Positions 840 to 63,003 of a stretch of DNA of 64,000 bases are shown here, in pieces (the stretch's first letter is position 1; every line of letters starts with the position of its first letter). Under the pieces are notes generated by a model. The model was not told the origin of the DNA. It ran no database searches and saw nothing but the letters and a program-made list of their open reading frames with translations. The DNA comes from a virus (Duplodnaviria; Caudoviricetes): IMG/VR virus record IMGVR_UViG_3300048762_000252, positions 64,001 through 128,000 of that record. One strand, written 5' to 3'. A program made the position numbers and the translations under genes.

Positions 840-1265
840 TTAAATGGTGGTATCCACAATTTCTTCACCTTCCAAATCTTGAAAACGATCTTGCATCTGC
901 TGAACCTTTTCGGTTGGAACGCCATGCAAATTCCTTGCAGCAGCAATCTTCGGATCAACTACGAGACGAATCACCTTCACATCATAGCCATACTTAGCAG
1001 CGAGATCCAGGTAGCCTTTGAATTCCCACAACTTTGTGTTGGTGTTATCGAGTACCACAGTGTTTTCGTTTCGTTGAAGGGCGGCTTCAAATTGATGAAA
1101 GCACCAAGAATGAGCGTTGCCCAATTGCTTCGGATCAAAGGTGTAAACGCCGTCCTTAATGAAGTAGTTATCGGCGCTGCATACAAAAGCATTTGGAAAA
1201 TGTTTTTGAACATATGTCGTTTTGCCACCGCCGCTAATTGACCTCATGATAATTACAGTTCTCAT
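840..1265 (-). CDS. P-loop kinase (AAA_33 / N4BP2-like polynucleotide kinase)
   Basis: Walker A SISGGGKTT, CSADNYF, VVLDNTN, RNLHGVP motifs. Confidence 0.85.
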   Translation of the reverse strand: MRTVIIMRSISGGGKTTYVQKHFPNAFVCSADNYFIKDGVYTFDPKQLGNAHSWCFHQFEAALQRNENTVVLDNTNTKLWEFKGYLDLAAKYGYDVKVIRLVVDPKIAAARNLHGVPTEKVQQMQDRFQDLEGEEIVDTTI

Positions 1266-1273
1266 ACAAAACC

Positions 1274-1303
1274 AGTATACCACGTACATCTATTTCTTGT
1301 CAA
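1274..1303 (-). promoter_or_regulatory. sigma70-type promoter, leaderless start
   Basis: TTGACA-18-TATACT with extended TG, ATG 8 nt downstream. Confidence 0.8.
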
Positions 1304-1901
1304 GGGTTGGAACCCGTTGAATTTTTCCAAATTCGTATTGAAGATTCACGGTAGTGCAAGGCTCCAAATTGAACACGATTCCTATGTTCTTTCCGCCCCA
1401 AAAGTCGCTATTTTCTCGGATGTGGGCAAGCTCCAAATCTCCATCGTATAAAAATAACGAGATGCTGTTTTCGTCTTCGTCTGCTCTAAAAATCTTACCA
1501 CATTGTTTACGAAGCATGGTTTCACAACTTCGGACGATAATGGGAAAATAACGAGCGCCAGTCGTTTTCGAAAACAGAATTTGGTATTCAAGACTGTAAA
1601 TTTCTTGGGATCGTTCAATTTCAAATACTTTTCCGTGTTGCCAGATCACCAACGGCAAGCGATATTTTGGTCCGGTCTTAGATTCCAAAAACTCACGGGC
1701 GGCGTCGAATGCTGCCGGTGCCATGTTTTGACGTGGAATTAGATTTGGTCGAAGTGATGCGCTTTTTCGTATCGACAAAACTGGAGTTTCGATTTGGATG
1801 AACCTAAAGGCAGGGTTCACCTTATTCATCTCAAGACCTAAATACCGAGTGAAATATCGAATCAGCGTTTCCCGAGTTTCTATTTCGTTATTACTATACA
1901 T
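1290..1901 (-). CDS. class II aminoacyl-tRNA synthetase-like protein (GlyRS-type catalytic core, degenerate motifs)
   Basis: IETPVL (motif 1), WQHGKVFEIE...YSLEYQ (motif 2-like, cf. QIGKAFRNE...FEQME), ELAHIRENSDF (cf. ELxGIAxRTDF). Confidence 0.6.
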   Translation of the reverse strand: MYSNNEIETRETLIRYFTRYLGLEMNKVNPAFRFIQIETPVLSIRKSASLRPNLIPRQNMAPAAFDAAREFLESKTGPKYRLPLVIWQHGKVFEIERSQEIYSLEYQILFSKTTGARYFPIIVRSCETMLRKQCGKIFRADEDENSISLFLYDGDLELAHIRENSDFWGGKNIGIVFNLEPCTTVNLQYEFGKIQRVPTLDKK

Positions 1902-2057
1902 TTAGGGACCGTAATAAACAAGCAAAAATTGAGCGCAAGCGCAATGCTTATACCAAGCGCAATGACGAGCGCCCATTGCTTTCTCGTCATCAAAAAATTG
2001 TTGTTCTTGGATTCATTCTCTTTTTTGCTACCCGCCACTGCGGACAGCGTTGTGAAC

Positions 2058-2342
2058 TCAGTACCAAATTCCATGCGAATGTTCTCCTATACTCATTATA
2101 CCCAAAAACAGCAAAGCACCGACAACAATCACGGCAGAGAAGATTGTCAGCTTCACGATCAAAGAAGCCTTTTCCCAACGATACTTCCAAGATTTCCATC
2201 CAGTTACCGGACGGAAATAAACATTGATGCCTTCGATTTTTTCTACGACAAGAAGTTGTCCGTCGATTTCTGTAAATTGTCCAATGGAAATTTGGTCAGC
2301 ATCCAAAACGGCGGTAGATCCGAGATTTACTAATTGCTCCAT
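2058..2342 (-). CDS. hypothetical membrane protein
   Basis: C-terminal hydrophobic helix. Confidence 0.55.
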   Translation of the reverse strand: MEQLVNLGSTAVLDADQISIGQFTEIDGQLLVVEKIEGINVYFRPVTGWKSWKYRWEKASLIVKLTIFSAVIVVGALLFLGIMSIGEHSHGIWY

Positions 2343-2349
2343 TACAATA

Positions 2350-2535
2350 TCACCGATTTGCTGCCACTTTTTTACAATGACTTACAAAGACTTTTGATGA
2401 CATAGCTCTTTTCATGGAATTGCATGTCCAGCAACACGAGACACAATTTTTAATAGTGTACCCATCGTTATTATCAACTCTATCAATTCCATTACAATAA
2501 ATCATATTTTTTGCGTAATCCTCTGCCATAACCAT
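2350..2535 (-). pseudogene. C-terminal remnant of HNH-type homing endonuclease
   Basis: NGIDRVDNNDGYTIKNCVSCCWTCNSMK motif without an N-terminal domain. Confidence 0.7.
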
Positions 2536-2536
2536 G

Positions 2537-3097
2537 CTACATAATAATATTTTTTGAATATATAACAGATTCGTATAATAACATTCCTTGTGTTATCGTG
2601 CGATAACTAGCGCCGGGATTCTCACGCATCCCTTTGTAAAACTCAGGGAGATTTTCTGGTATGTAGCCTCTTTTTACATCATTCAAATACGTTTGGTCAA
2701 CTGACATAGCATACATACCTTCTGTTTTGAAGTCACCAAAAAATTCATCGGCAATGTCTTTTGGCTGGCGATTTGGATTTTGAGAGAGAAGCCAACAGAA
2801 ACCGATCATTGGTGAACGGTGCTTTCCAGCAGAACAACACAGATACACAAGTGGATACTGCATCTCTAAGCACCAGAAGTCCAGAATTTTTTTCGTGGCA
2901 AAAAAAGGAAGATATCCCCAAGATTTTGAAATTTCGTTGATAGGAATCCATCGAAACAATGGATGCTGCATAAGGGACCAATCGAAATCGTCCGTTGTGG
3001 AAAGAATTGCAGTCGGGTTGTATTTTAGGGCATCCTTTTGTGGTCCAATTTGAATATTGAACTTTGGGATGCCCCGTGAGATGCGAATCAAACTCAT
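2537..3097 (-). CDS. dual-specificity/tyrosine phosphatase-like protein
   Basis: CX5R loop VYLCCSAGKHRS. Confidence 0.75.
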   Translation of the reverse strand: MSLIRISRGIPKFNIQIGPQKDALKYNPTAILSTTDDFDWSLMQHPLFRWIPINEISKSWGYLPFFATKKILDFWCLEMQYPLVYLCCSAGKHRSPMIGFCWLLSQNPNRQPKDIADEFFGDFKTEGMYAMSVDQTYLNDVKRGYIPENLPEFYKGMRENPGASYRTITQGMLLYESVIYSKNIIM

Positions 3098-3301: not shown

Positions 3302-3802
3302 TTACGACGCTAATCCAAGGTTAGCTTTGCGCTTCAGGAATTCCAATTCCCATGGCGTGTATTTGCGTAGAAGAAGAACATCTTCAAAAACACCACCAAC
3401 ATAATCCATCCAGTTAGCGCTAGAATCAGCTTCGGCTTTCAGCATCGCTTTTCCAACGGACTGTGCAACTTCACCATACATTCGTTCCGGCAGAATAATG
3501 CCTACAGCAGTATTGGCGTAGTTGAGGCCGGGTTCCTGGAACATAGTGAACGGATATGTGGTCTGGCCGGTCATGAATTTGTATAGGTTGCCCAAAGCCA
3601 ACGAGTCGCCACCATTCAAAATAACCCAAGTTTTGTGGTTCTTCGAAAACTCCCGAAGCATGGCGAATTTGGCTTCTGCGCTTTTCGTTCGCTTGCCCTT
3701 CAGTTCGGTAAGGGTAGACCAAAGCTGATCTAAAGCGTGTCCCGCTTGAATTCCAGCCTGGATTCCTTTACAGTAAAAATTGGAGAACGCTATATATCTC
3801 AT
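3302..3802 (-). CDS. putative peptidyl-tRNA hydrolase-like (Pth2-fold) phage protein
   Basis: GIQAGIQAGHA, HKTWVILNGG, FQEPGLN..TAVGII motifs. Confidence 0.55.
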   Translation of the reverse strand: MRYIAFSNFYCKGIQAGIQAGHALDQLWSTLTELKGKRTKSAEAKFAMLREFSKNHKTWVILNGGDSLALGNLYKFMTGQTTYPFTMFQEPGLNYANTAVGIILPERMYGEVAQSVGKAMLKAEADSSANWMDYVGGVFEDVLLLRKYTPWELEFLKRKANLGLAS

Positions 3803-4807
3803 ATGAGCAATTTTACCACAAATCACAAATCAGAGTCAATAGCAAAAATTTATATTATTGAAAACCTGATAAATCATAGAAAATACATCGGTTTTACAAC
3901 GGCATCTTTACAGTCCAGGTGGCGCAAACATGTTTACAGTGCCAAAAAATCGAAATATTATTTGCATCGAGCAATCCGAAAATATGGGAAGGAAAATTTC
4001 TCAATTGCCGAAATCTACAGTTCTAAAAATGTCGAACATACCTTACATGAAATGGAACCATTTTTCATTAAGCAATTTGACACATACGAAAATGGCTACA
4101 ACATGACAATTGGAGGCGAGGGCATAATTGGGTGTAGAAGTGTTCGCCATCCACATTCTCCAGAGACCATTCAAAAAATGAAAGATGGCTGGACCCCAGA
4201 ACGCCGTGCCGAAGCATCAAAACGATTTTCAGAATTACCACGCACTGATGAACACAACGCTCGTATTGCTGCTGCACACAAAGGTTGTAAAAAATCTCCT
4301 GAAGCAATTGAAAAACATCGCAAAGCAATGACTGGTCGTAAATTATCAGCCGATCAAATTCAAAAAATGAGAGAGCGGGTAGTGACTGAAGAAACACGGA
4401 TGAAGATGAGTAAAGCCAAAAAAGGACAGCCGCAATCAAGTAAGTCTGTTGAAAAACGTGCAGCAGCAAATCGTGGGCAAACTCGCACACCACATCAAAT
4501 TGAAGCCAATAGACAAACACAATTAGCATTACATAGAAAGCATACAGAAACAGAAATTCAAAAAATGAAGAACGCAAGGCGGCTGTATTTGGAACATAAT
4601 GAAAGCAATGCTACGAAAAATTGGATTTTGTGGCACAAAAATGAATCAACTCCATTTTTTGTTAGAAATCTTGAAAAGTGGGCCGCTCAAAAAGGCTTGC
4701 GTGGAGACTCTTTACAAAAAGTGGCTAAAGGCATCCGAAACAGCGATCATGGATATAGAGTGTGGAGAGAAGATAAGTGCCCAGAAGAAATTAAATGTTC
4801 ATGCTAG
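3803..4807 (+). CDS. GIY-YIG homing endonuclease (Seg-like) with NUMOD3-type repeats
   Basis: IYIIENLINHRKYIG, RW..H, GYNMTIGGEG, repeated basic helices. Confidence 0.9.
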   Translation: MSNFTTNHKSESIAKIYIIENLINHRKYIGFTTASLQSRWRKHVYSAKKSKYYLHRAIRKYGKENFSIAEIYSSKNVEHTLHEMEPFFIKQFDTYENGYNMTIGGEGIIGCRSVRHPHSPETIQKMKDGWTPERRAEASKRFSELPRTDEHNARIAAAHKGCKKSPEAIEKHRKAMTGRKLSADQIQKMRERVVTEETRMKMSKAKKGQPQSSKSVEKRAAANRGQTRTPHQIEANRQTQLALHRKHTETEIQKMKNARRLYLEHNESNATKNWILWHKNESTPFFVRNLEKWAAQKGLRGDSLQKVAKGIRNSDHGYRVWREDKCPEEIKCSC

Positions 4808-4839: not shown

Positions 4840-6687
4840 TCAATCTTCGTAGTATGGAAATTTTTTGAGATGGTCAATCAAAGAATCTTGACTTTCACCT
4901 TTGGCTGAATGTTTATTGCCTTTGTATTTCCAATTTTGAGAATCTCGATTTAGATGAATTTCATGCCCACTCTGCGGATGTTTGTAAATTTCATGAGTGG
5001 GTGTCGCTTCATGAAATTCAAATCCATGCGACCAAGGAGTTTTCCACATAGGATGTCTAGTGCTTTCATATACTCGTGCCATGGCTAACTCAACCAAAGC
5101 CTTTTTGAAGTTCATATCTTTATCAGATTCAAACACAAATTCAACGCCTTCACCCTCCACTAAGCGCACAGAAACGGCGTTGATGATAGCGTTCATTTTT
5201 GCGGCTTCTTTGGCTTCAATTTTGGAATGCATCATTACGGCATTGCCAGTGACTACAAAGCTCTCTTTCATATATGGAGCGTTTACATCTTTGACAGTAT
5301 AATCTTTTGTTTTTGGATTTTGCTCTTTGAATTTTTCAATTACATCTTTTGGTGTCCAATGTGGCGTATCGGCGGCGTCACCTGTATAACCACGAACATG
5401 AAGAGTTTTGCTTGGATGGTGAACATGAATGTAACCACGTTTCACTTTATCAAATTTTTCTCCTGATGTCGGTATGCTTTTACCATGAAACCAATTAGCA
5501 TGTGCGGGACTAGCATGGAAATGATATGCTTTTGAAACAAAGGCTTTGCCATTATGATGCGCCCAAATATGTTCTGGCATTTCTTCTTCAATTATAAAGC
5601 TCTCCGCTTGATTTGCTGCGGTAGTGCCTTGCGGTTTTCCATTTCCAGGTTGCTCCTGATCTACAATTTTCATATGGTTTGCACCGTAACCTTTTTCTTG
5701 AAGCCAGCGCAAAATATCCATCGGGCCTTTTGCACGATAACGATCAATTGCGTTACCACTTTTGTCTTTTACCGCAATTGAGTAGTCCTTACCAATCTCA
5801 ACTGTCAAACCACGTTTTGATGTCGCACTCTGCTTAATTGGAGTTTCATCTGCGGATTGAAAGGCTGGATTATTTGGGTCTTCTTGTTTTTCGTTCCCTT
5901 GTGGCTCATCACTTGGTTTTTGTGGTTCGGCGGCAACTGCATTAGCATGACTGATTGGTTGCTGTTCTGGCTTGGCAGATCCTTCATCACCCATTTGTTG
6001 TCGAGCTTGCGCTTGAACTTGTGATGCGCCACCAGTGGATGCTATCGGACTTGCTTGATTTGGTGGCTGTGTATCACCTTCGATATTTTTATTGCCAGCT
6101 ATAGAGTTGCCAAATGCCGACTGCGTTCCAGTTTTTTTAACCTGGAAGAAAGTACGATAATGATGTTTTTGGGTTTGTTCAATTTCGTACTCTGGGTTCG
6201 CTGCCACAGTGTCCATGGAGATTGAGCGCAAAATCATTTTTAATTTTCCGTTAGAAAGATCGTCTAAGATGAGATTTCCCGGCTTTGCCTTTTGGACAAA
6301 ATCAATAATGCAATGAGTAATCGTAATCCAAATTGTGAGGGAATCTTCATGCGAAAGAGATATGTCCCACTTCATGAAAAATTCAGGACTTCGATTGCTG
6401 AAGAAGGTGACATAAAAAGTGGCATCACTTGTTTGATCTGTATTAGGTTGTCCCGGTGGTGCAAAAGCGTCTGGTGCTGGCGGCATTCCTCCTTGTGCCG
6501 GTTCTGGTTGACCGGAAACATCACCAACTTGATGAAATGTGACTCTTACTTCGCCCCCATCAGGGGCGATGAACCCACATTTCCAGATGGAAGTTCCTTT
6601 ACCATCTGTCTCTGGTTGTCGCTGTGCAATCCATGTCCATTGGATCGGCGTGGGTTGAGGTGGCGAATTTTGTTGATTGATGTTCAT
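4840..6687 (-). CDS. late-expressed modular protein, probable virion internal protein
   Basis: ATAAATA late promoter 6 nt before ATG; Q/P-rich linker; His-rich modules following xxE sites. Confidence 0.6.
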   Translation of the reverse strand: MNINQQNSPPQPTPIQWTWIAQRQPETDGKGTSIWKCGFIAPDGGEVRVTFHQVGDVSGQPEPAQGGMPPAPDAFAPPGQPNTDQTSDATFYVTFFSNRSPEFFMKWDISLSHEDSLTIWITITHCIIDFVQKAKPGNLILDDLSNGKLKMILRSISMDTVAANPEYEIEQTQKHHYRTFFQVKKTGTQSAFGNSIAGNKNIEGDTQPPNQASPIASTGGASQVQAQARQQMGDEGSAKPEQQPISHANAVAAEPQKPSDEPQGNEKQEDPNNPAFQSADETPIKQSATSKRGLTVEIGKDYSIAVKDKSGNAIDRYRAKGPMDILRWLQEKGYGANHMKIVDQEQPGNGKPQGTTAANQAESFIIEEEMPEHIWAHHNGKAFVSKAYHFHASPAHANWFHGKSIPTSGEKFDKVKRGYIHVHHPSKTLHVRGYTGDAADTPHWTPKDVIEKFKEQNPKTKDYTVKDVNAPYMKESFVVTGNAVMMHSKIEAKEAAKMNAIINAVSVRLVEGEGVEFVFESDKDMNFKKALVELAMARVYESTRHPMWKTPWSHGFEFHEATPTHEIYKHPQSGHEIHLNRDSQNWKYKGNKHSAKGESQDSLIDHLKKFPYYED

Positions 6688-38735: not shown

Positions 38736-38809
38736 GCGTGGATAGCACAAAGGTAGTGTGTTCGATCCCAATCGAAAGGTGGCGGTTCGACTCCGACCTC
38801 CACGCTCCA
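38736..38809 (+). tRNA. non-canonical tRNA-Gly-like RNA (6-nt anticodon loop UCCCAA, bulged T-stem, encoded CCA)
   Basis: GCGTGGA/TCCACGC acceptor + T73 + CCA; GCAC/GTGT D-stem; TTCGA/TCGAA anticodon stem; GGCGG-TTCGACT-CCGACC T-arm. Confidence 0.85.
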
Positions 38810-38813
38810 AACA

Positions 38814-39608
38814 ATGGAAAAAGCACATCAACGAAAAATTAGAGAAGAGCAAGCACGCTACGATTCTCCGCTGGCAGAATGGCATGACATTGACACGTCT
38901 ATTCAAAACGGTATCGTTCATGAAATAGATTTCGATGTCGCAAAACCTATTATTCTCAAATACGAATGGCTTGGAAAATTGCGTGCCGGAATGCTACATG
39001 CTTTTGGCATATTTTTTGATGGTGTCATCGGCGGCGTTGTGATCTATGCCAATGACTACTCCGAAAATCTTGGTACCTGGGATGGCTACGGATACACGGG
39101 TAAGATTATTTGCTTGGCAAGAGGCACTTGTGTTCATTGGGCGCATGAACATACCGGCAGCAAGCTCATCAGACAGTCAATGAAGATGCTGCCCGACAAA
39201 TATAAAATAATTTCTTGCACCGTAGACGAAAATGCAGGAGAGATCGGTACGATTTATCAAGCATGTGGTTTCAACTACGTTGGAATCATGGGACCAGGAA
39301 AACGTGTCGTTTTTATAAAACCAAATGGTAACCAAATCTCTGAACGGACGGCTCGTGACCTATATGGCACAGGCAACATCAAACTGCTGGAAGAGAAGGG
39401 ACTGAAAGCAGAATATGTGAAACGCAAGGCTCGTTACTTCGCATTCCGTGGGTCCAAGAAAGAACAGAAGGAACTACGCAAAGCTATCGAGTCTCAAATA
39501 AAACCATATCCTAAACGGCAGCGGCATTCTGACGACGAGTTGCAGCAGCTTTGTGACCAGCCTGAACCATCGTCTCATGACGCTCCTGCTTCGCACGAAG
39601 ACGAGTAG
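38814..39608 (+). CDS. mom: Mom-family DNA adenine modification enzyme (GNAT fold)
   Basis: IILKYEWLG...FGIFF...GVVIY, LARG, SKLI..SMK, D..AGEIGTIYQACGFNYVG, K.RY, PYPK. Confidence 0.8.
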   Translation: MEKAHQRKIREEQARYDSPLAEWHDIDTSIQNGIVHEIDFDVAKPIILKYEWLGKLRAGMLHAFGIFFDGVIGGVVIYANDYSENLGTWDGYGYTGKIICLARGTCVHWAHEHTGSKLIRQSMKMLPDKYKIISCTVDENAGEIGTIYQACGFNYVGIMGPGKRVVFIKPNGNQISERTARDLYGTGNIKLLEEKGLKAEYVKRKARYFAFRGSKKEQKELRKAIESQIKPYPKRQRHSDDELQQLCDQPEPSSHDAPASHEDE

Positions 39609-57033: not shown

Positions 57034-58068
57034 TCACAACTGAAGTATATGTGTCAACTTCAAACCATTTTTAACAACCGGTCGATTTTTCCAGCCATGT
57101 GTCGTTTGAACATGGTGTGCTCGAACATATTTTGCCACAGATTTTCTAAAGCTGCCGTAAGGAAATGACTCGGCAACTCGAACCACATAGCCTTCGTGGT
57201 GATCCGTATCTGTTGGTGCCAGGGAACGGACTTTCTCTTCGTCCCAAATGCCACGCCAAATTACCGGCACAGTGGCTAAGTCAAGCACAGCGGCATATTC
57301 AACAGTGTCGTCCCAAGATAGACAAATATTGTTTTCATCCCAAATCGAGAACACCAAAAAGTATGATAGCAAATCGCTGTATGGAATTGAATGGAGTGCA
57401 TACACATTTTCTCCACATATTCTCAAATCACCTATATCGTAACAAATTCGACCATGAAGATTTTTTACCCATCCTCTACTTTCGTGGTTGTCTGTGTCGA
57501 GAGAACGAGCATGAATATGATCGTTGTACATGGTAGTGTTTTCGCCGTCCATTTTTTCAGTGACCACAACTTCCCGACCTTCAAATACTGAGGTTGAAGG
57601 AAGTACTCTATCGTCAGATGTTAGGCCGGGAGAATTTGGTAAGTGGAATGTCCTTGGGTACTTCACATACTTTCGAAAAAGCAGCAAAACTCCACCAGCC
57701 TTCAAAACTTTTTGAACGGATTCGTCGTTGAACAATTCGCCTTTAGTTCTTGTGCCATCGGCGTGGATGATGTTGCTCCATTTATCATAGTTGTATTCGT
57801 CGTACAAGTGCTCTGGTAAATGGATTTTTGTGATACCAACTGCCGCTCGGAGTTCATCACACGAAAGAATAGTCATCTCTGCTTTCATATGGCACGTTGG
57901 ATCACAGAGCGTAACGCCATTGTCTAGGTAGTAGCCGCCATCGTCCCACAAGCGACGTTCCAGAATGTGATGAGAGTCGAGTTTGCCAGTATTACCACAA
58001 ATGACACACTTATGGTGATCCCGTTCCAATACTGCATTTCGAAATGTATCACGATCCAATAGTTGCAT
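57034..58068 (-). CDS. ATP-dependent RNA ligase with N-terminal HNH domain
   Basis: RD.HKCVIC...DSHHI...NGVTLC; KYPRT.HLP, EKMDGEN, GEN, EGYVVR, KYVR. Confidence 0.85.
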   Translation of the reverse strand: MQLLDRDTFRNAVLERDHHKCVICGNTGKLDSHHILERRLWDDGGYYLDNGVTLCDPTCHMKAEMTILSCDELRAAVGITKIHLPEHLYDEYNYDKWSNIIHADGTRTKGELFNDESVQKVLKAGGVLLLFRKYVKYPRTFHLPNSPGLTSDDRVLPSTSVFEGREVVVTEKMDGENTTMYNDHIHARSLDTDNHESRGWVKNLHGRICYDIGDLRICGENVYALHSIPYSDLLSYFLVFSIWDENNICLSWDDTVEYAAVLDLATVPVIWRGIWDEEKVRSLAPTDTDHHEGYVVRVAESFPYGSFRKSVAKYVRAHHVQTTHGWKNRPVVKNGLKLTHILQL

Positions 58069-60259: not shown

Positions 60260-61840
60260 TTATTCAGCATCAAGTAACCTTTTTGCATCTACGATATCTT
60301 CTTCCGTAGGCAAGGCAGGTTCTTGATCCATCCATTCGTTCGCACGAGCACGAACCGTCTCAAAAGATTCATGAATCAACATATCGCCATTACGGAAAAT
60401 CGGGCGAAGTAAGTTGCCTTTTGGTAAAGGCTCACCCTGCTTCAAAGTTTTGGTGACAAAACGATGTTCGCCGGTTTCTTTATCATATTCCTTGACCACC
60501 GCAAACCGACCAGCCTTACTGCCCTTACCAGGGTCCGTGATTGGGTCCTTCATAACTTCACGCCAATTGCCACTGGCATCAGTCAACGAAGATAACTTAA
60601 CGGCCATTTTCTGTGTGTCCCTAGTGGACGCCTGAAGCAATGCACCGCCCATACCAAAAGCAGCGATGTTATCGAGAGACCACTTTGCGCCTTCGGTGGC
60701 TGCGACCATGTTGTAGATCGCATCATAATCGTTTTTGTCACCCTGCAATGTGCGGACATGATTGAGAACACGATAACCCTTGGCATTGACGGTCCAACCG
60801 AATTTCTCGCCCAAAATCCACAAAAGTTTCATCATCGTGGGAATCGATTCGCCACTATCCGGGCGCACCACAACGATACCTTCACGTTCCACAACTTCTG
60901 TGTGCAACTCCGTGCCAAGGATCTTCTCTGCGAAGTCAAAAATGTTGTAACTATCGCCTACCATAGCGATAATTCCAGTAGGGCATTTATTCAAGATATC
61001 ACGCACCACTTCGACTTCAAGCTCACGCCCTCGCTGAGTCATGACACTGTGCTCTGTCGCACGCACAGAGTTACCCGGCATATAAGTGGGATCGCCATCT
61101 TTGTCCATCACGCCATCGCCGTAAAATTCATTTACATAGTCGATGGCTGGAACAGTATCAGTTCCCCTAAAATTGACTAAGTGAGCAGCGCCAGCAATTT
61201 CTGCGCTTTCTTCGGAACTTACACCACGGTAGCCGAAGTCATGCAACTTCCAGATGATGTCAGCTTCGGTGCCGCTTCGTTTCAATCCTTCATGTAGAAC
61301 GATTTTGCAGTGCTGTGAGAGTGTGCAAACCGTAATTGGATTCCAAGTTTTGAACATCAATGGCTCAATGTAACCTGGAAGCCAAGCGCAATTGGGATCG
61401 GTGTTGAAGTACGTCATCAACGGTGTCTGAACCGGCACACCTGTCTGGTTGCGATTTTTGGACTTTTTACTGAGACCTTCCGGCAGCGCCCAAACTTCCA
61501 ACGGCAGACGACCACCCAACTTTTCGGCAATGTACATCCAGCCGTCGTAGTTGAATACACCATCCATACCATAATATTGAGTATAGAACTTACGTGCTTT
61601 TTTCACCTGTTCTGGTGTGATAACCCGACCACAAAGATACTTCATGGCAAAGCCTTGAAAGCCAAATGGAATCATGGTCTGAAATTGCCCGCCTCGGCTG
61701 GTAAGGTAATCATAAGTCTGACTGATTCCAGGTTCGTAGAAAAGCCAGTGAGACGGCTTATATCCGTCTGTCTTTTTGGCAAAGATTCGTTCGCTTGGTC
61801 CACGTAAGATATGTGGAATTTCGGTCGCTGTTGCACTCAT
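60260..61840 (-). CDS. nadV: nicotinamide phosphoribosyltransferase (NAMPT/NadV)
   Basis: TDGYKPSH, LHDFGYRG, AHLVNFRGTDT, ATEHS, RPDSG, QGD, KDPITDPGK.SK.GR. Confidence 0.93.
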   Translation of the reverse strand: MSATATEIPHILRGPSERIFAKKTDGYKPSHWLFYEPGISQTYDYLTSRGGQFQTMIPFGFQGFAMKYLCGRVITPEQVKKARKFYTQYYGMDGVFNYDGWMYIAEKLGGRLPLEVWALPEGLSKKSKNRNQTGVPVQTPLMTYFNTDPNCAWLPGYIEPLMFKTWNPITVCTLSQHCKIVLHEGLKRSGTEADIIWKLHDFGYRGVSSEESAEIAGAAHLVNFRGTDTVPAIDYVNEFYGDGVMDKDGDPTYMPGNSVRATEHSVMTQRGRELEVEVVRDILNKCPTGIIAMVGDSYNIFDFAEKILGTELHTEVVEREGIVVVRPDSGESIPTMMKLLWILGEKFGWTVNAKGYRVLNHVRTLQGDKNDYDAIYNMVAATEGAKWSLDNIAAFGMGGALLQASTRDTQKMAVKLSSLTDASGNWREVMKDPITDPGKGSKAGRFAVVKEYDKETGEHRFVTKTLKQGEPLPKGNLLRPIFRNGDMLIHESFETVRARANEWMDQEPALPTEEDIVDAKRLLDAE

Positions 61841-63003
61841 TTTGCTCTATTCTCCTGTATCTCATTACGAATGTTTGATGACGAAACATCACGAAAATTC
61901 AATGGTTCCGTGACTTCTTTACAAAGCGCAGCAAACCGTTCCGGCAATCCGTCCACACCAGCATGATACACTCCGTTCACTTTTCGACCAAAAACCAAGA
62001 AACGGGTTCCACAATCCATAAAGGTTTTATAAACCTCATCTACATTTCCGTACTTAGGATTTACAATGCGAATTATTGTATCATACCCAACAAGAAATGT
62101 TGTGTTAGGAAAAATTCTAGCTTTCTCCGCAAAGGTGGGCGCATTTGTCAACCACACCCGCCGATCACCCACAGTCTTCAATCGCTCTTCAAGAGAAATA
62201 AAATCCAAGATCGGCTTGTCAGCATTACGGATGCTTAATTCGTAATCACAGCTACCAATACCATGCCGCTCCACATAAGCAGCCATTTCTTCATGACCGG
62301 CGTGCGCCGGATTGAAGCTGCCAGGGAGCAAGTATCGTGGCATATCACTCCGACCAAACGGTAGAAAAATGCCCATGTTTGGAGTGTAGGCCAACGCTTT
62401 GACTTTGCTGTCCAACAATTCCGGGAAGTAGCCGCTGTAAATTGAAGACTCCCGGCGTACAACATCAACAGCAGGAAGCGCCAAACGGCCTTCGATACCA
62501 CAACCTTCCGCCACCAGATTCAACAGCAAATCCGCATTGATGCCTTCTTCCCATTCACGGGTCTGAATGGCATTCCAAGGTGTGAACTTTTTCGGATCAA
62601 TCGTGACGGAAAGCGAAACTGTTTTGCTGCCAGTTTGGAGCGCTGCGTGGATGTAGTGAATACGTCCTTCCCGCTCATTAGGGGTCTTCTGGAGGGCCGA
62701 AGAGCAAGCCACACCAATGACCGGGGCATTGTCCGTTGATAGCGCCAACGCCTTCTGGTACGCAGCCATAGCCAATTGGCGAGTAGTCGCCTCACTGACG
62801 AACTTTTCCGGCTCCCCACCCAAAAGTTCCACCGTTTCGGTATTAGCATAAGGAACACGGGCGGAAAGAAGCGTGGCCGATCCACCACCACGCCTCAAAA
62901 GCATCGGAAGAACATCTGTGCCGCCACCAGTGATTATCAGCACAACTTTCGTGCTAGTTTTGTGAATCAGCGGTACTAATTCTTCTGGCGTCATCATTCT
63001 CAT
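61837..63003 (-). CDS. CinA-like domain fused to NMN adenylyltransferase-like (HxGH) domain
   Basis: TGGG...PY N-terminal domain; PGSFNPAHAGH, VGYDT, VSSSNIR. Confidence 0.8.
   Translation of the reverse strand: MRMMTPEELVPLIHKTSTKVVLIITGGGTDVLPMLLRRGGGSATLLSARVPYANTETVELLGGEPEKFVSEATTRQLAMAAYQKALALSTDNAPVIGVACSSALQKTPNEREGRIHYIHAALQTGSKTVSLSVTIDPKKFTPWNAIQTREWEEGINADLLLNLVAEGCGIEGRLALPAVDVVRRESSIYSGYFPELLDSKVKALAYTPNMGIFLPFGRSDMPRYLLPGSFNPAHAGHEEMAAYVERHGIGSCDYELSIRNADKPILDFISLEERLKTVGDRRVWLTNAPTFAEKARIFPNTTFLVGYDTIIRIVNPKYGNVDEVYKTFMDCGTRFLVFGRKVNGVYHAGVDGLPERFAALCKEVTEPLNFRDVSSSNIRNEIQENRAK

Follow-up and report, generated by a model that had tools for sequence, protein, structure and literature searches.

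Synthetase scaffolds that have been recruited for binding or regulation are textbook material, with HisZ, PolgammaB, SLIMP and the HisRS-like domain of GCN2 as examples. HisZ, the regulatory subunit of ATP phosphoribosyltransferase (Protein Data Bank, PDB, 3od1, 1z7m and 1usy), is a class IIa paralog without an anticodon-binding domain and serves another enzyme as a non-catalytic subunit. PolgammaB, the accessory subunit of mitochondrial DNA polymerase gamma (PDB 5c53 and 8d33), is a dead, nucleic-acid-binding class IIa pseudo-synthetase. Other truncated paralogs of the aminoacyl-tRNA synthetases act on acceptors other than tRNA, for example the amino acid:carrier-protein ligases, EpmA and AsnA; the carrier-protein ligases derive from SerRS and are active, with a zinc site and the arginines of both motif 2 and motif 3 still in place. 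While such paralogs are known as a kind, no phage pseudo-synthetase and no stand-alone one derived from glycyl-tRNA synthetase (GlyRS) was found described in Pfam, PHROGs, NCBIfam or the literature. The protein examined here, termed pseudo-GlyRS, has 203 amino acids and is encoded at 1290..1901 on the minus strand of a 64,000-nucleotide stretch of tailed-phage DNA (the window), which comprises bases 64001-128000 of the 166.6-kb IMG/VR record IMGVR_UViG_3300048762_000252 (79% complete according to CheckV). It is a paralog of the class IIa catalytic core, assigned to GlyRS from its open reading frame (ORF), full-length homologues, an AlphaFold2 model, fold matches and hhalign comparisons. It has lost its catalytic residues and lies in a conserved gene cassette with a phosphatase and, usually, a kinase. 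Its family has no entry in Pfam, PHROGs or NCBIfam, and no account of it turned up in a literature search.

A sequence-only reading of the window had described the ORF as a 203-residue protein with traces of class II motifs most like those of alpha2-type GlyRS, and its extent proved exactly right. The true start is the ATG at 1901 because residues before M60 are invariant in the homologues (R10, L13, F17, N29, A31, I37, E38, P40 and R57 in 29 sequences), which align from residue 1. Among 5.8 billion proteins searched by word index, 30 relatives were found, mostly of about 200 amino acids. In both the ESM Atlas and the gene annotation of the source (P0001) the protein begins at M60, a mis-called start giving 144 amino acids, and in the Atlas this form folds poorly (predicted local distance difference test, pLDDT, 0.39) and gives no usable match. 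The mis-started gene call probably explains why the class II fold had gone unnoticed. Public protein records lack the 59 conserved residues of the N-terminus, motif 1 among them, which are encoded at 1722-1901 on the minus strand. The window protein itself had no match in Pfam (E<=1), PHROG, NCBIfam or the PDB sequences. A weak match to uS13 (E 0.37) was dismissed as chance.

The AlphaFold2 model, made from a 29-sequence alignment, has a pLDDT of 90 and a predicted TM-score (pTM) of 0.85. The Foldseek matches in the PDB, with E from 2e-8 to 1e-6, were without exception class II synthetase cores or paralogs of such cores: PylRS (2e-8), PolgammaB, GlyRS 8slh, SepRS, the catalytic-like domain of PheRS-beta and ProRS. 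The best viral match, in BFVD, was a 222-residue phage protein labelled 'class-II aaRS profile domain' (A0A6J5M2P2, 2.9e-12). VIA-align, a Foldseek-independent alignment of the model against all structural representatives, gave PolgammaB (Z 17.2, root-mean-square deviation 3.0 over 186 residues), HisZ (Z 17.0, with further matches at 15.6 and 14.3), HisRS (16.3), GlyRS (15.5 and 15.4), the amino acid:carrier-protein ligase Bll0957 (14.9), ProRS (14.8), GenX (11.7) and AsnA (11.4). The top matches (Z 12-17) cover residues 1-203, and as modelled the protein is a single class IIa catalytic-core domain with nothing appended. Since the core fills the entire protein there is no anticodon-binding domain, and the chain ends 22 residues past motif 3. 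The class II fold and the missing anticodon-binding domain, both of which had been read from the sequence alone, were borne out by these comparisons.

The likeness to each described system is partial. PolgammaB, the best structural match, keeps a C-terminal domain resembling an anticodon-binding domain and binds a family A polymerase, whereas the window protein does neither, and the identity between them is 14%. HisZ shares the class IIa core but derives from HisRS rather than GlyRS, and the window protein does not match the hisZ model TIGR00443. Bll0957 (PDB 3mey), a SerRS-like amino acid:carrier-protein ligase, is likewise a class II core in truncated form and has no parts for binding tRNA. 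The alpha2-type GlyRS enzymes (PDB 8u2q/8sld, 1ati, 2pme and 5z5e) have the same class IIa fold, and the window protein keeps from them the motif 1 proline, the LR..T remnant of LRPET, the WQxGK strand and the E..LE strand. Unlike them, it has neither the anticodon-binding nor the insertion domains and it has lost the arginines of motif 2, the motif-2 loop and motif 3 as well as the glutamate of RPE.

The descent from GlyRS comes to light through more distant relatives. When 1.84 billion representatives were scanned exhaustively with phmmer, no more than 38 clusters of the family were recovered, the distant members of which have 224-250 amino acids and carry the class IIa/GlyRS motifs. In this motif-intact clade these read LRPETT, WQxGKSFRNEQD...RLKEFYQLEFQ (motif 2), SDRLPxYSxxTxD, SxRxD and EVAIGLDR (motif 3). 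When the profile of the intact clade (17 sequences) was compared with the PDB, the top 14 matches were all alpha2-type GlyRS (best 1.8e-16) and the first match to anything else was to PylRS (2e-4), so that GlyRS is ahead of the others by at least 10 orders of magnitude. In NCBIfam the intact clade scores best with the models for glycine--tRNA ligase, at no more than 53 bits against a cut-off of 312; the window protein has no match to the GlyRS equivalog models NF003211 and TIGR00389. All 17 intact relatives match Pfam PF00587 (tRNA-synt_2b), as does gp258 of Sinorhizobium phage Phosso. The profiles of the intact clade and of the clade containing the window protein, hereafter the degenerate clade, match each other with an hhalign probability of 100 (E 5e-47). 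By way of these intact relatives, the sequence comparisons place the origin of pseudo-GlyRS in the catalytic core of an alpha2-type GlyRS, and the resemblance claimed from the sequence alone thus holds, if indirectly.

The extent of the catalytic loss was examined in an alignment of 52 family sequences, 35 of them representing degenerate-clade clusters and 17 intact ones, from which the residue counts given here are taken. Motif 1 (F32-L42, FRFIQIETPVL, 1776..1808, minus strand) is retained with its Pro40; I37, E38 and P40 are found in all 35 degenerate sequences and also in the intact clade. What remains of the class IIa LRPET element is R57-Q-N-M (1722..1733, minus strand), in which R57 is kept throughout (35/35) and the glutamate is lost: the column holds T in 12, N in 11, S in 5, E in 2 and G in 2 degenerate sequences, N59 in the window protein and E in 100% of the intact clade. 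The hairpin of motif 2 (W87-F110, 1572..1643, minus strand) is degenerate with a shortened loop, and has FEIE (residues 93-96, nucleotides 1614-1625) where the intact relatives have FRNE within SFRNE. The motif 2 arginine, present in 17/17 intact sequences, is replaced by E94 in the window protein and across the degenerate clade the column reads E in 10, K in 8, Q in 6, R in 3 and D in 2; the glutamate two residues further on is variable in that clade (E96 in the window protein). Motif 3 (G170-P181, 1359..1394, minus strand) ends in NLEP (residues 178-181, nucleotides 1359-1370) in place of GLDR, with P181 in the column where all 17 intact sequences have arginine and the degenerate ones have A (10), T (8), R (3), H (3) or V (2). 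The FEIE and NLEP readings made from the sequence alone were confirmed both by direct inspection and by the profile alignment. The active-site loops have lost 13 residues in two segments in 35/35 degenerate sequences, and both the motif-2 loop arginine and the LPxY segment are deleted in the same 35, the window protein included.

In class II synthetases the motif 2 arginine holds the alpha-phosphate of ATP, the motif 3 arginine holds the gamma-phosphate, and the motif-2 loop contacts the acceptor end of the tRNA. Given that both ATP-binding arginines are gone and the motif-2 loop is shortened, canonical adenylate formation is not expected, and we infer from the loss of the arginines that canonical ATP binding has been lost as well. 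The degenerate branch would then make no glycyl-adenylate and would charge no tRNA by the class II mechanism. An alternative is that the protein has stayed enzymatic, as a ligase or transferase of a non-canonical kind that uses K91, R131/K132 and C134 instead of the class II arginines. The presence of truncated active paralogs (Bll0957, GenX and AsnA) among the fold matches is in keeping with this, as are the appearance of a new, invariant Cys-Gly motif and the partial retention of the amino-acid pocket, both described below. However, the arginines of motif 2 and motif 3 are lost together and the 13-residue deletion in the active-site loops is universal in the clade, while all active class II paralogs known to us keep both arginines. 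Continued catalysis is therefore judged distinctly unlikely.

The decay is not uniform over the core. R57, W87, G90, E100, L104, T114 and Y118 are kept in 35/35 degenerate sequences, and Q88 (28/35), E105 (29/35) and E174 (29/35) are kept in part, the window's own subgroup having Gly at column 174. Three glutamate columns, which we take from prior knowledge of GlyRS structures to form the glycine pocket, read N59, E105 and G174 in the window protein, and the clade keeps the first in 2/35 sequences and the second and third in 29/35 each. Thus the degenerate branch would have lost one of the three glycine-binding glutamates, or two in the subgroup of the window protein. Such a pattern might be expected of a sensor of the HisZ type, that is, an allosteric subunit which binds a small ligand (glycine or similar), controls the phosphatase or the kinase encoded alongside and does not bind RNA. 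HisZ is among the top fold matches, R57, Q88, E105 and E174 persist in a core whose ATP subsite has decayed, and synteny with the neighbouring enzymes is tight. Nevertheless, the RPE glutamate is lost in 33/35 sequences and E174 is Gly in the window's subgroup, and the shift of the clade to an isoelectric point (pI) of about 9 would be unexpected for a glycine sensor. This explanation is considered unlikely.

Near-invariant residues new to the degenerate clade are F17, R19, R33, P120, M129, C134, G135, G170 and E190. Three of these fall in the clade-specific motif MLRKQCG (M129-G135, 1497..1517, minus strand), in which 34/35 sequences have M129, and as many have C134 and G135, and which is not conserved in the intact clade. 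There is also a conserved basic C-terminal tail, FGKIQRVPTLDKK (1293..1331, minus strand; consensus EFGKIRRxxPxDKK), which is modelled with low confidence (mean pLDDT 65 for residues 191-200 and 50 for residues 201-203). The pI is about 9 and the net charge +3 to +9 in 27/29 close relatives, compared with a pI of around 5.5, in a range of 5.1-7.7, in the intact clade. Having kept motif 1 and the fold, turned basic and gained MLRKQCG, the dead branch would appear to work by binding and not by catalysis.

A maximum-likelihood tree of the 52 sequences, midpoint-rooted and built with no cellular outgroup, separates the 35 degenerate from the 17 intact sequences by one branch (SH-like approximate likelihood ratio test 100) with one state change. 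As all the degenerate sequences lie on one side of a single branch, the catalytic loss happened once. For close, unsaturated pairs the ratio of non-synonymous to synonymous substitution rates (dN/dS) is 0.074 and 0.15, and it is below 0.3 wherever dS could be estimated; for pairs in which dS is saturated, dN is still 0.2-0.6. Reading frames are intact throughout the degenerate clade and no disrupted copy was seen. It could be supposed that the gene is merely a decaying remnant without function, recalling that its catalytic motifs are lost and that its start was misplaced by the gene caller. A dN/dS of 0.07-0.15 indicates instead a maintained pseudoenzyme, and 35 clusters with intact frames and new invariant residues, together with a model pLDDT of 90, make the decaying remnant hardly credible. 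The suggestion in the sequence-only reading of a catalytically dead paralog is thus well supported, with the catalytic residues lost clade-wide under purifying selection.

A phage-encoded intact second copy was excluded as a heterodimer partner, as only one family copy was found per record in the window's record and 15 others checked (the copy in record G018 is split in two pieces). The partner might instead be a host alpha2-type GlyRS, with which pseudo-GlyRS would form a heterodimer through the motif 1 interface and so alter or block the host enzyme, much as the Vs protein of phage T4 acts on the host ValRS. The single family copy per genome is consistent with this, and conservation within the protein is highest in motif 1 and the N-terminal helix. 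Many bacteria, however, use the unrelated alpha2beta2 GlyRS, and the synteny with RNA-end enzymes would be left unexplained, so such a modifier of the host enzyme is regarded as very unlikely.

The synteny in question is extensive. The minus-strand genes around pseudo-GlyRS run in the order 615-amino-acid protein (4840-6687), phrog_3668 'hydrolase', 61-amino-acid ORF, CX5R phosphatase, HNH remnant, 94- and 64-amino-acid proteins, pseudo-GlyRS and kinase. The members of the cassette proper are the possibly Pth2-like hydrolase, the phosphatase, the two small membrane proteins, pseudo-GlyRS and the kinase, which resembles polynucleotide kinase (PNK); in the window they are packed stop to start. 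The order phosphatase, small protein or proteins, pseudo-GlyRS, kinase recurs in degenerate-clade contigs with enough flanking sequence (L003-L005, L059-L070 and L076), down to 35% identity.

The phosphatase (186 amino acids, 2537..3097, minus strand) is a cysteine phosphatase of the tyrosine or dual-specificity type with a CxxGxxRSP loop. The Pfam match is weak (DSPc, 0.06). The loop is invariant, with C88, G91, R94, S95 and P96 the same in all 8 homologues. Wherever a degenerate-clade locus has sufficient sequence upstream, the phosphatase gene is found there in synteny. An orthologue is adjacent to pseudo-GlyRS in the complete 405-kb degenerate-clade record G002, while none was found in the complete intact-clade genomes (0/4). 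A 'tyrosine phosphatase' of phage Phosso was considered as a homologue since it shares the loop in the form CxAGxxRSP, but the hhalign probability of 3 is not significant and it was rejected.

Between the phosphatase and pseudo-GlyRS are the genes for two small proteins. The first (94 amino acids, 2058..2342, minus strand) has a hydrophobic C-terminal helix and is a conserved upstream neighbour, being immediately upstream of pseudo-GlyRS in L003, L004, L005, L059, L061-L063, L067-L070 and L076. The second (64 amino acids, 1880..2074, minus strand) is a predicted small membrane protein with a hydrophobic C-terminal segment in its translation; its gene overlaps the start of pseudo-GlyRS by 22 nt and homologues occupy the same position in L059, L061, L062, L063 and L076. 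The kinase (840..1289, minus strand) is a P-loop protein of the PNK-like kind (Pfam AAA_33 1e-13, phrog_2071/505, bacterial Pnkp kinase model 5.6e-6) with an invariant P-loop, Asp and DNTNT. Its ATG abuts the stop codon of pseudo-GlyRS (TAG-ATG), though the true start is likely the ATG at 1265. It is directly downstream of pseudo-GlyRS in L003, L059, L060, L061, L064, L069 and L070, and in G002 an orthologue is present but 82 kb away. Downstream of the kinase in the window's record come small ORFs, a DUF6011 protein, a radical-SAM protein, a NADAR protein and then, 4-10 kb downstream and on the same strand, an array of tRNA genes (Ile, Lys, Ile, Arg, Val, Lys, Arg). Arrays of tRNA genes are also found 7-10 kb downstream of pseudo-GlyRS, on the same strand, in L003, L065 and G002.

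Pseudo-GlyRS is a fixed member of a tightly packed operon, which also has a CX5R phosphatase that looks active and in most cases a PNK-like kinase, and which lies upstream of a tRNA array by a few kb. From an operon of this composition near a tRNA array, we conclude that the most likely role is that of an RNA- or tRNA-binding or regulatory subunit. More specifically, it is probable, though with some reserve, that pseudo-GlyRS is a non-catalytic subunit of this kind in an RNA-end-healing or tRNA-maintenance cassette. RNA would be its ligand and the neighbouring enzymes its partners. Several observations weigh against this. The motif-2 loop is shortened, making canonical docking of the acceptor end doubtful; the two small membrane proteins in the cassette are unexplained by RNA repair; the kinase is not adjacent in the subgroup at 43% identity (L004 and G002); the partly kept amino-acid pocket (Q88, E105 and E174) would suit a small-ligand sensor equally well; and the degenerate clade is known from metagenomes only. 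The acceptor-stem-only tRNA-binding factor of the sequence-only reading may be an apt description or not: the shortened motif-2 loop speaks against it, the basic charge of the clade for it. A more explicit version, in which the dead synthetase core docks broken or damaged tRNAs and presents their ends to the CX5R phosphatase and the PNK-like kinase, with Rnl2-type ligases sealing them as a counter-defence against tRNA-cleaving nucleases of the host, is speculative and rather unlikely. If true, split end-healing with pseudo-GlyRS as the tRNA-recognition subunit would be a previously undescribed use of a synthetase scaffold.

The sequence-only reading had proposed another role for this protein, as a partner of a tRNA-like/Mom unit elsewhere in the window. 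A tRNA-Gly-like gene (38736-38809, plus strand) ends 4 nt before the ATG of a Mom-family ORF (38814-39608). It scores 34.6 bits with the Rfam tRNA model and has an acceptor stem with G1-C72, C2-G71 and G3-C70, U73, an encoded CCA and an anticodon loop of 6 nt, UCCCAA. For the Mom protein of phage Mu, Gly-tRNA-Gly serves as co-substrate (PMC13219725). Pseudo-GlyRS could then be a dedicated binder, chaperone or charging factor for the tRNA-Gly-like RNA, supplying or holding the glycyl donor for DNA momylation. Its GlyRS ancestry agrees with such a role, and there is no other tRNA-Gly in the window's record than the one beside Mom. The distribution does not agree. Of the other viral records with a family member, 0/40 have a Mom homologue; these records include 13 with a completeness of 90% or more and also the complete record G002, which has a degenerate-clade copy. 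The anticodon-arm pattern of the tRNA-like gene is absent from the degenerate-clade records searched (G001-G003) and occurs only in the window's own record. Phylogenetic profiling among the family-bearing records thus shows no co-occurrence with Mom or with the tRNA-like element; the Mom-bearing viral contigs, at 31 kb or less, are too short for the reverse profile. Furthermore, 37 kb separate the pseudo-GlyRS and Mom loci, which are on opposite strands, pseudo-GlyRS no longer has the ATP-binding residues that charging requires, and it is a phosphatase and a kinase, and not Mom, that are conserved beside it. As Mom is absent from the 40 other records, the distribution of the family is independent of Mom and the proposed partnership, now most unlikely, fails on the very ground on which it was to be judged. 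A tempting link to the newly established tRNA-dependent chemistry of Mom is thereby removed as unsupported.

The gene at 3302..3802 (minus strand, 166 amino acids), described in the sequence-only reading as Pth-like, is a phrog_3668 'hydrolase' (PHROG 9e-29). In the ESM Atlas, 22/30 of its feature matches are in sets carrying PF01981, with a TM-score of 0.56 to eukaryotic PTH2. The AlphaFold2 model is shallow (pLDDT 71) and its best VIA-align match is the archaeal Pth2 1wn2 (Z 4.7). No significant match was found in Pfam, NCBIfam, PDB sequence or PDB profile searches, and against the PTH2 of phage Phosso the hhalign probability is 0.2. A Pth2-like identity is possible, to be taken as a lead and not as a finding.

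An HNH/endonuclease VII remnant (61 amino acids, 2350-2535, minus strand) and a GIY-YIG/NUMOD3 homing endonuclease (356 amino acids, 3737-4807, plus strand) interrupt the cassette in the window, and both are absent from the same junctions in the relatives L062 and L063. Of the genes between the cassette and the tRNA array, the NADAR-domain protein (8.5e-26) lies at L096:642-1232 (minus strand; record 61041-61631) and the radical-SAM-like protein (9.6e-6, below the Pfam cut-off) at L096:1290-2144 (minus strand; record 61689-62543). Two RNA ligases of the Rnl2 family (PF09414, 112 and 76 bits) are encoded in the record, at 57124-57576 of the window (minus strand) and at G000:C1:161294-161806 (plus strand). 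No match to a ligase of the T4 Rnl1 type was found in the record, though the control for that search gave no match either.

The motif-intact sister clade is the other half of the comparison. The family is small, essentially confined to phages and made up of stand-alone cores; a scan of about 185,000 species genomes retrieved 7 copies, all phage-like, and no cellular GlyRS. The intact mini-GlyRS proteins (Phosso gp258, hypothetical proteins of Caulobacter Bertelyvirus and BFVD A0A6J5M2P2) belong to the same family, are cores of 200-250 amino acids and occur, like pseudo-GlyRS, as one copy per phage genome. They differ from the window protein in keeping all the GlyRS catalytic residues, in being acidic, in lying within tRNA arrays and in not having the phosphatase neighbour. 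The genes are found inside the tRNA arrays of jumbo phages, and a tRNA-Gly is directly upstream of those at L009:10001-10660, L012:1687-2337, L016:10001-10639, L017:10001-10651 and L095:3001-3687, some of which are close relatives and not five independent events. The intact clade may consist of active phage GlyRS enzymes which do without an anticodon-binding domain. One branch of the family has kept every GlyRS catalytic residue and lies within the tRNA arrays of jumbo phages, the dead branch having arisen once. The family offers a natural before and after pair, an intact mini-GlyRS beside tRNA-Gly and a dead branch of single origin wired to a phosphatase and a kinase. With it one can test whether a GlyRS core without the anticodon-binding domain charges phage tRNA-Gly, and what a synthetase core does once catalysis has ended. 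The family would gain in interest should split end-healing be borne out, or should its intact branch turn out to be GlyRS lacking that domain.

The degenerate clade was not found in any cultured phage, and a megablast of the first 6 kb of the window against GenBank phages gave no match. With tblastn the window protein gave 10 matches, all below 29% identity, and the one examined, Phosso gp258, is of the intact type. This protein (XYS97415.1; L001:3965-4717, PV764938.1) is annotated as 'serine-tRNA synthetase' but belongs to the intact clade by hhalign (E 1e-69), and on this sequence match it has probably been misannotated. Encoded near gp258 are an RNA ligase, CysRS, a tRNA, the CxAGxxRSP phosphatase and PTH2, among others. 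At three further loci a tRNA with a CTA anticodon (amber-suppressor type, labelled Pyl by ARAGORN) is directly upstream of the mini-GlyRS gene (L021:9500-9574, L022:9836-9912 and L037:9504-9578). An intact-clade copy is also present in the isolate Paraburkholderia sp. BL21I4N1 (NZ_PVEN01000001.1; L092:3001-3711), near the end of a 1.43-Mb contig, where it may be part of a prophage.

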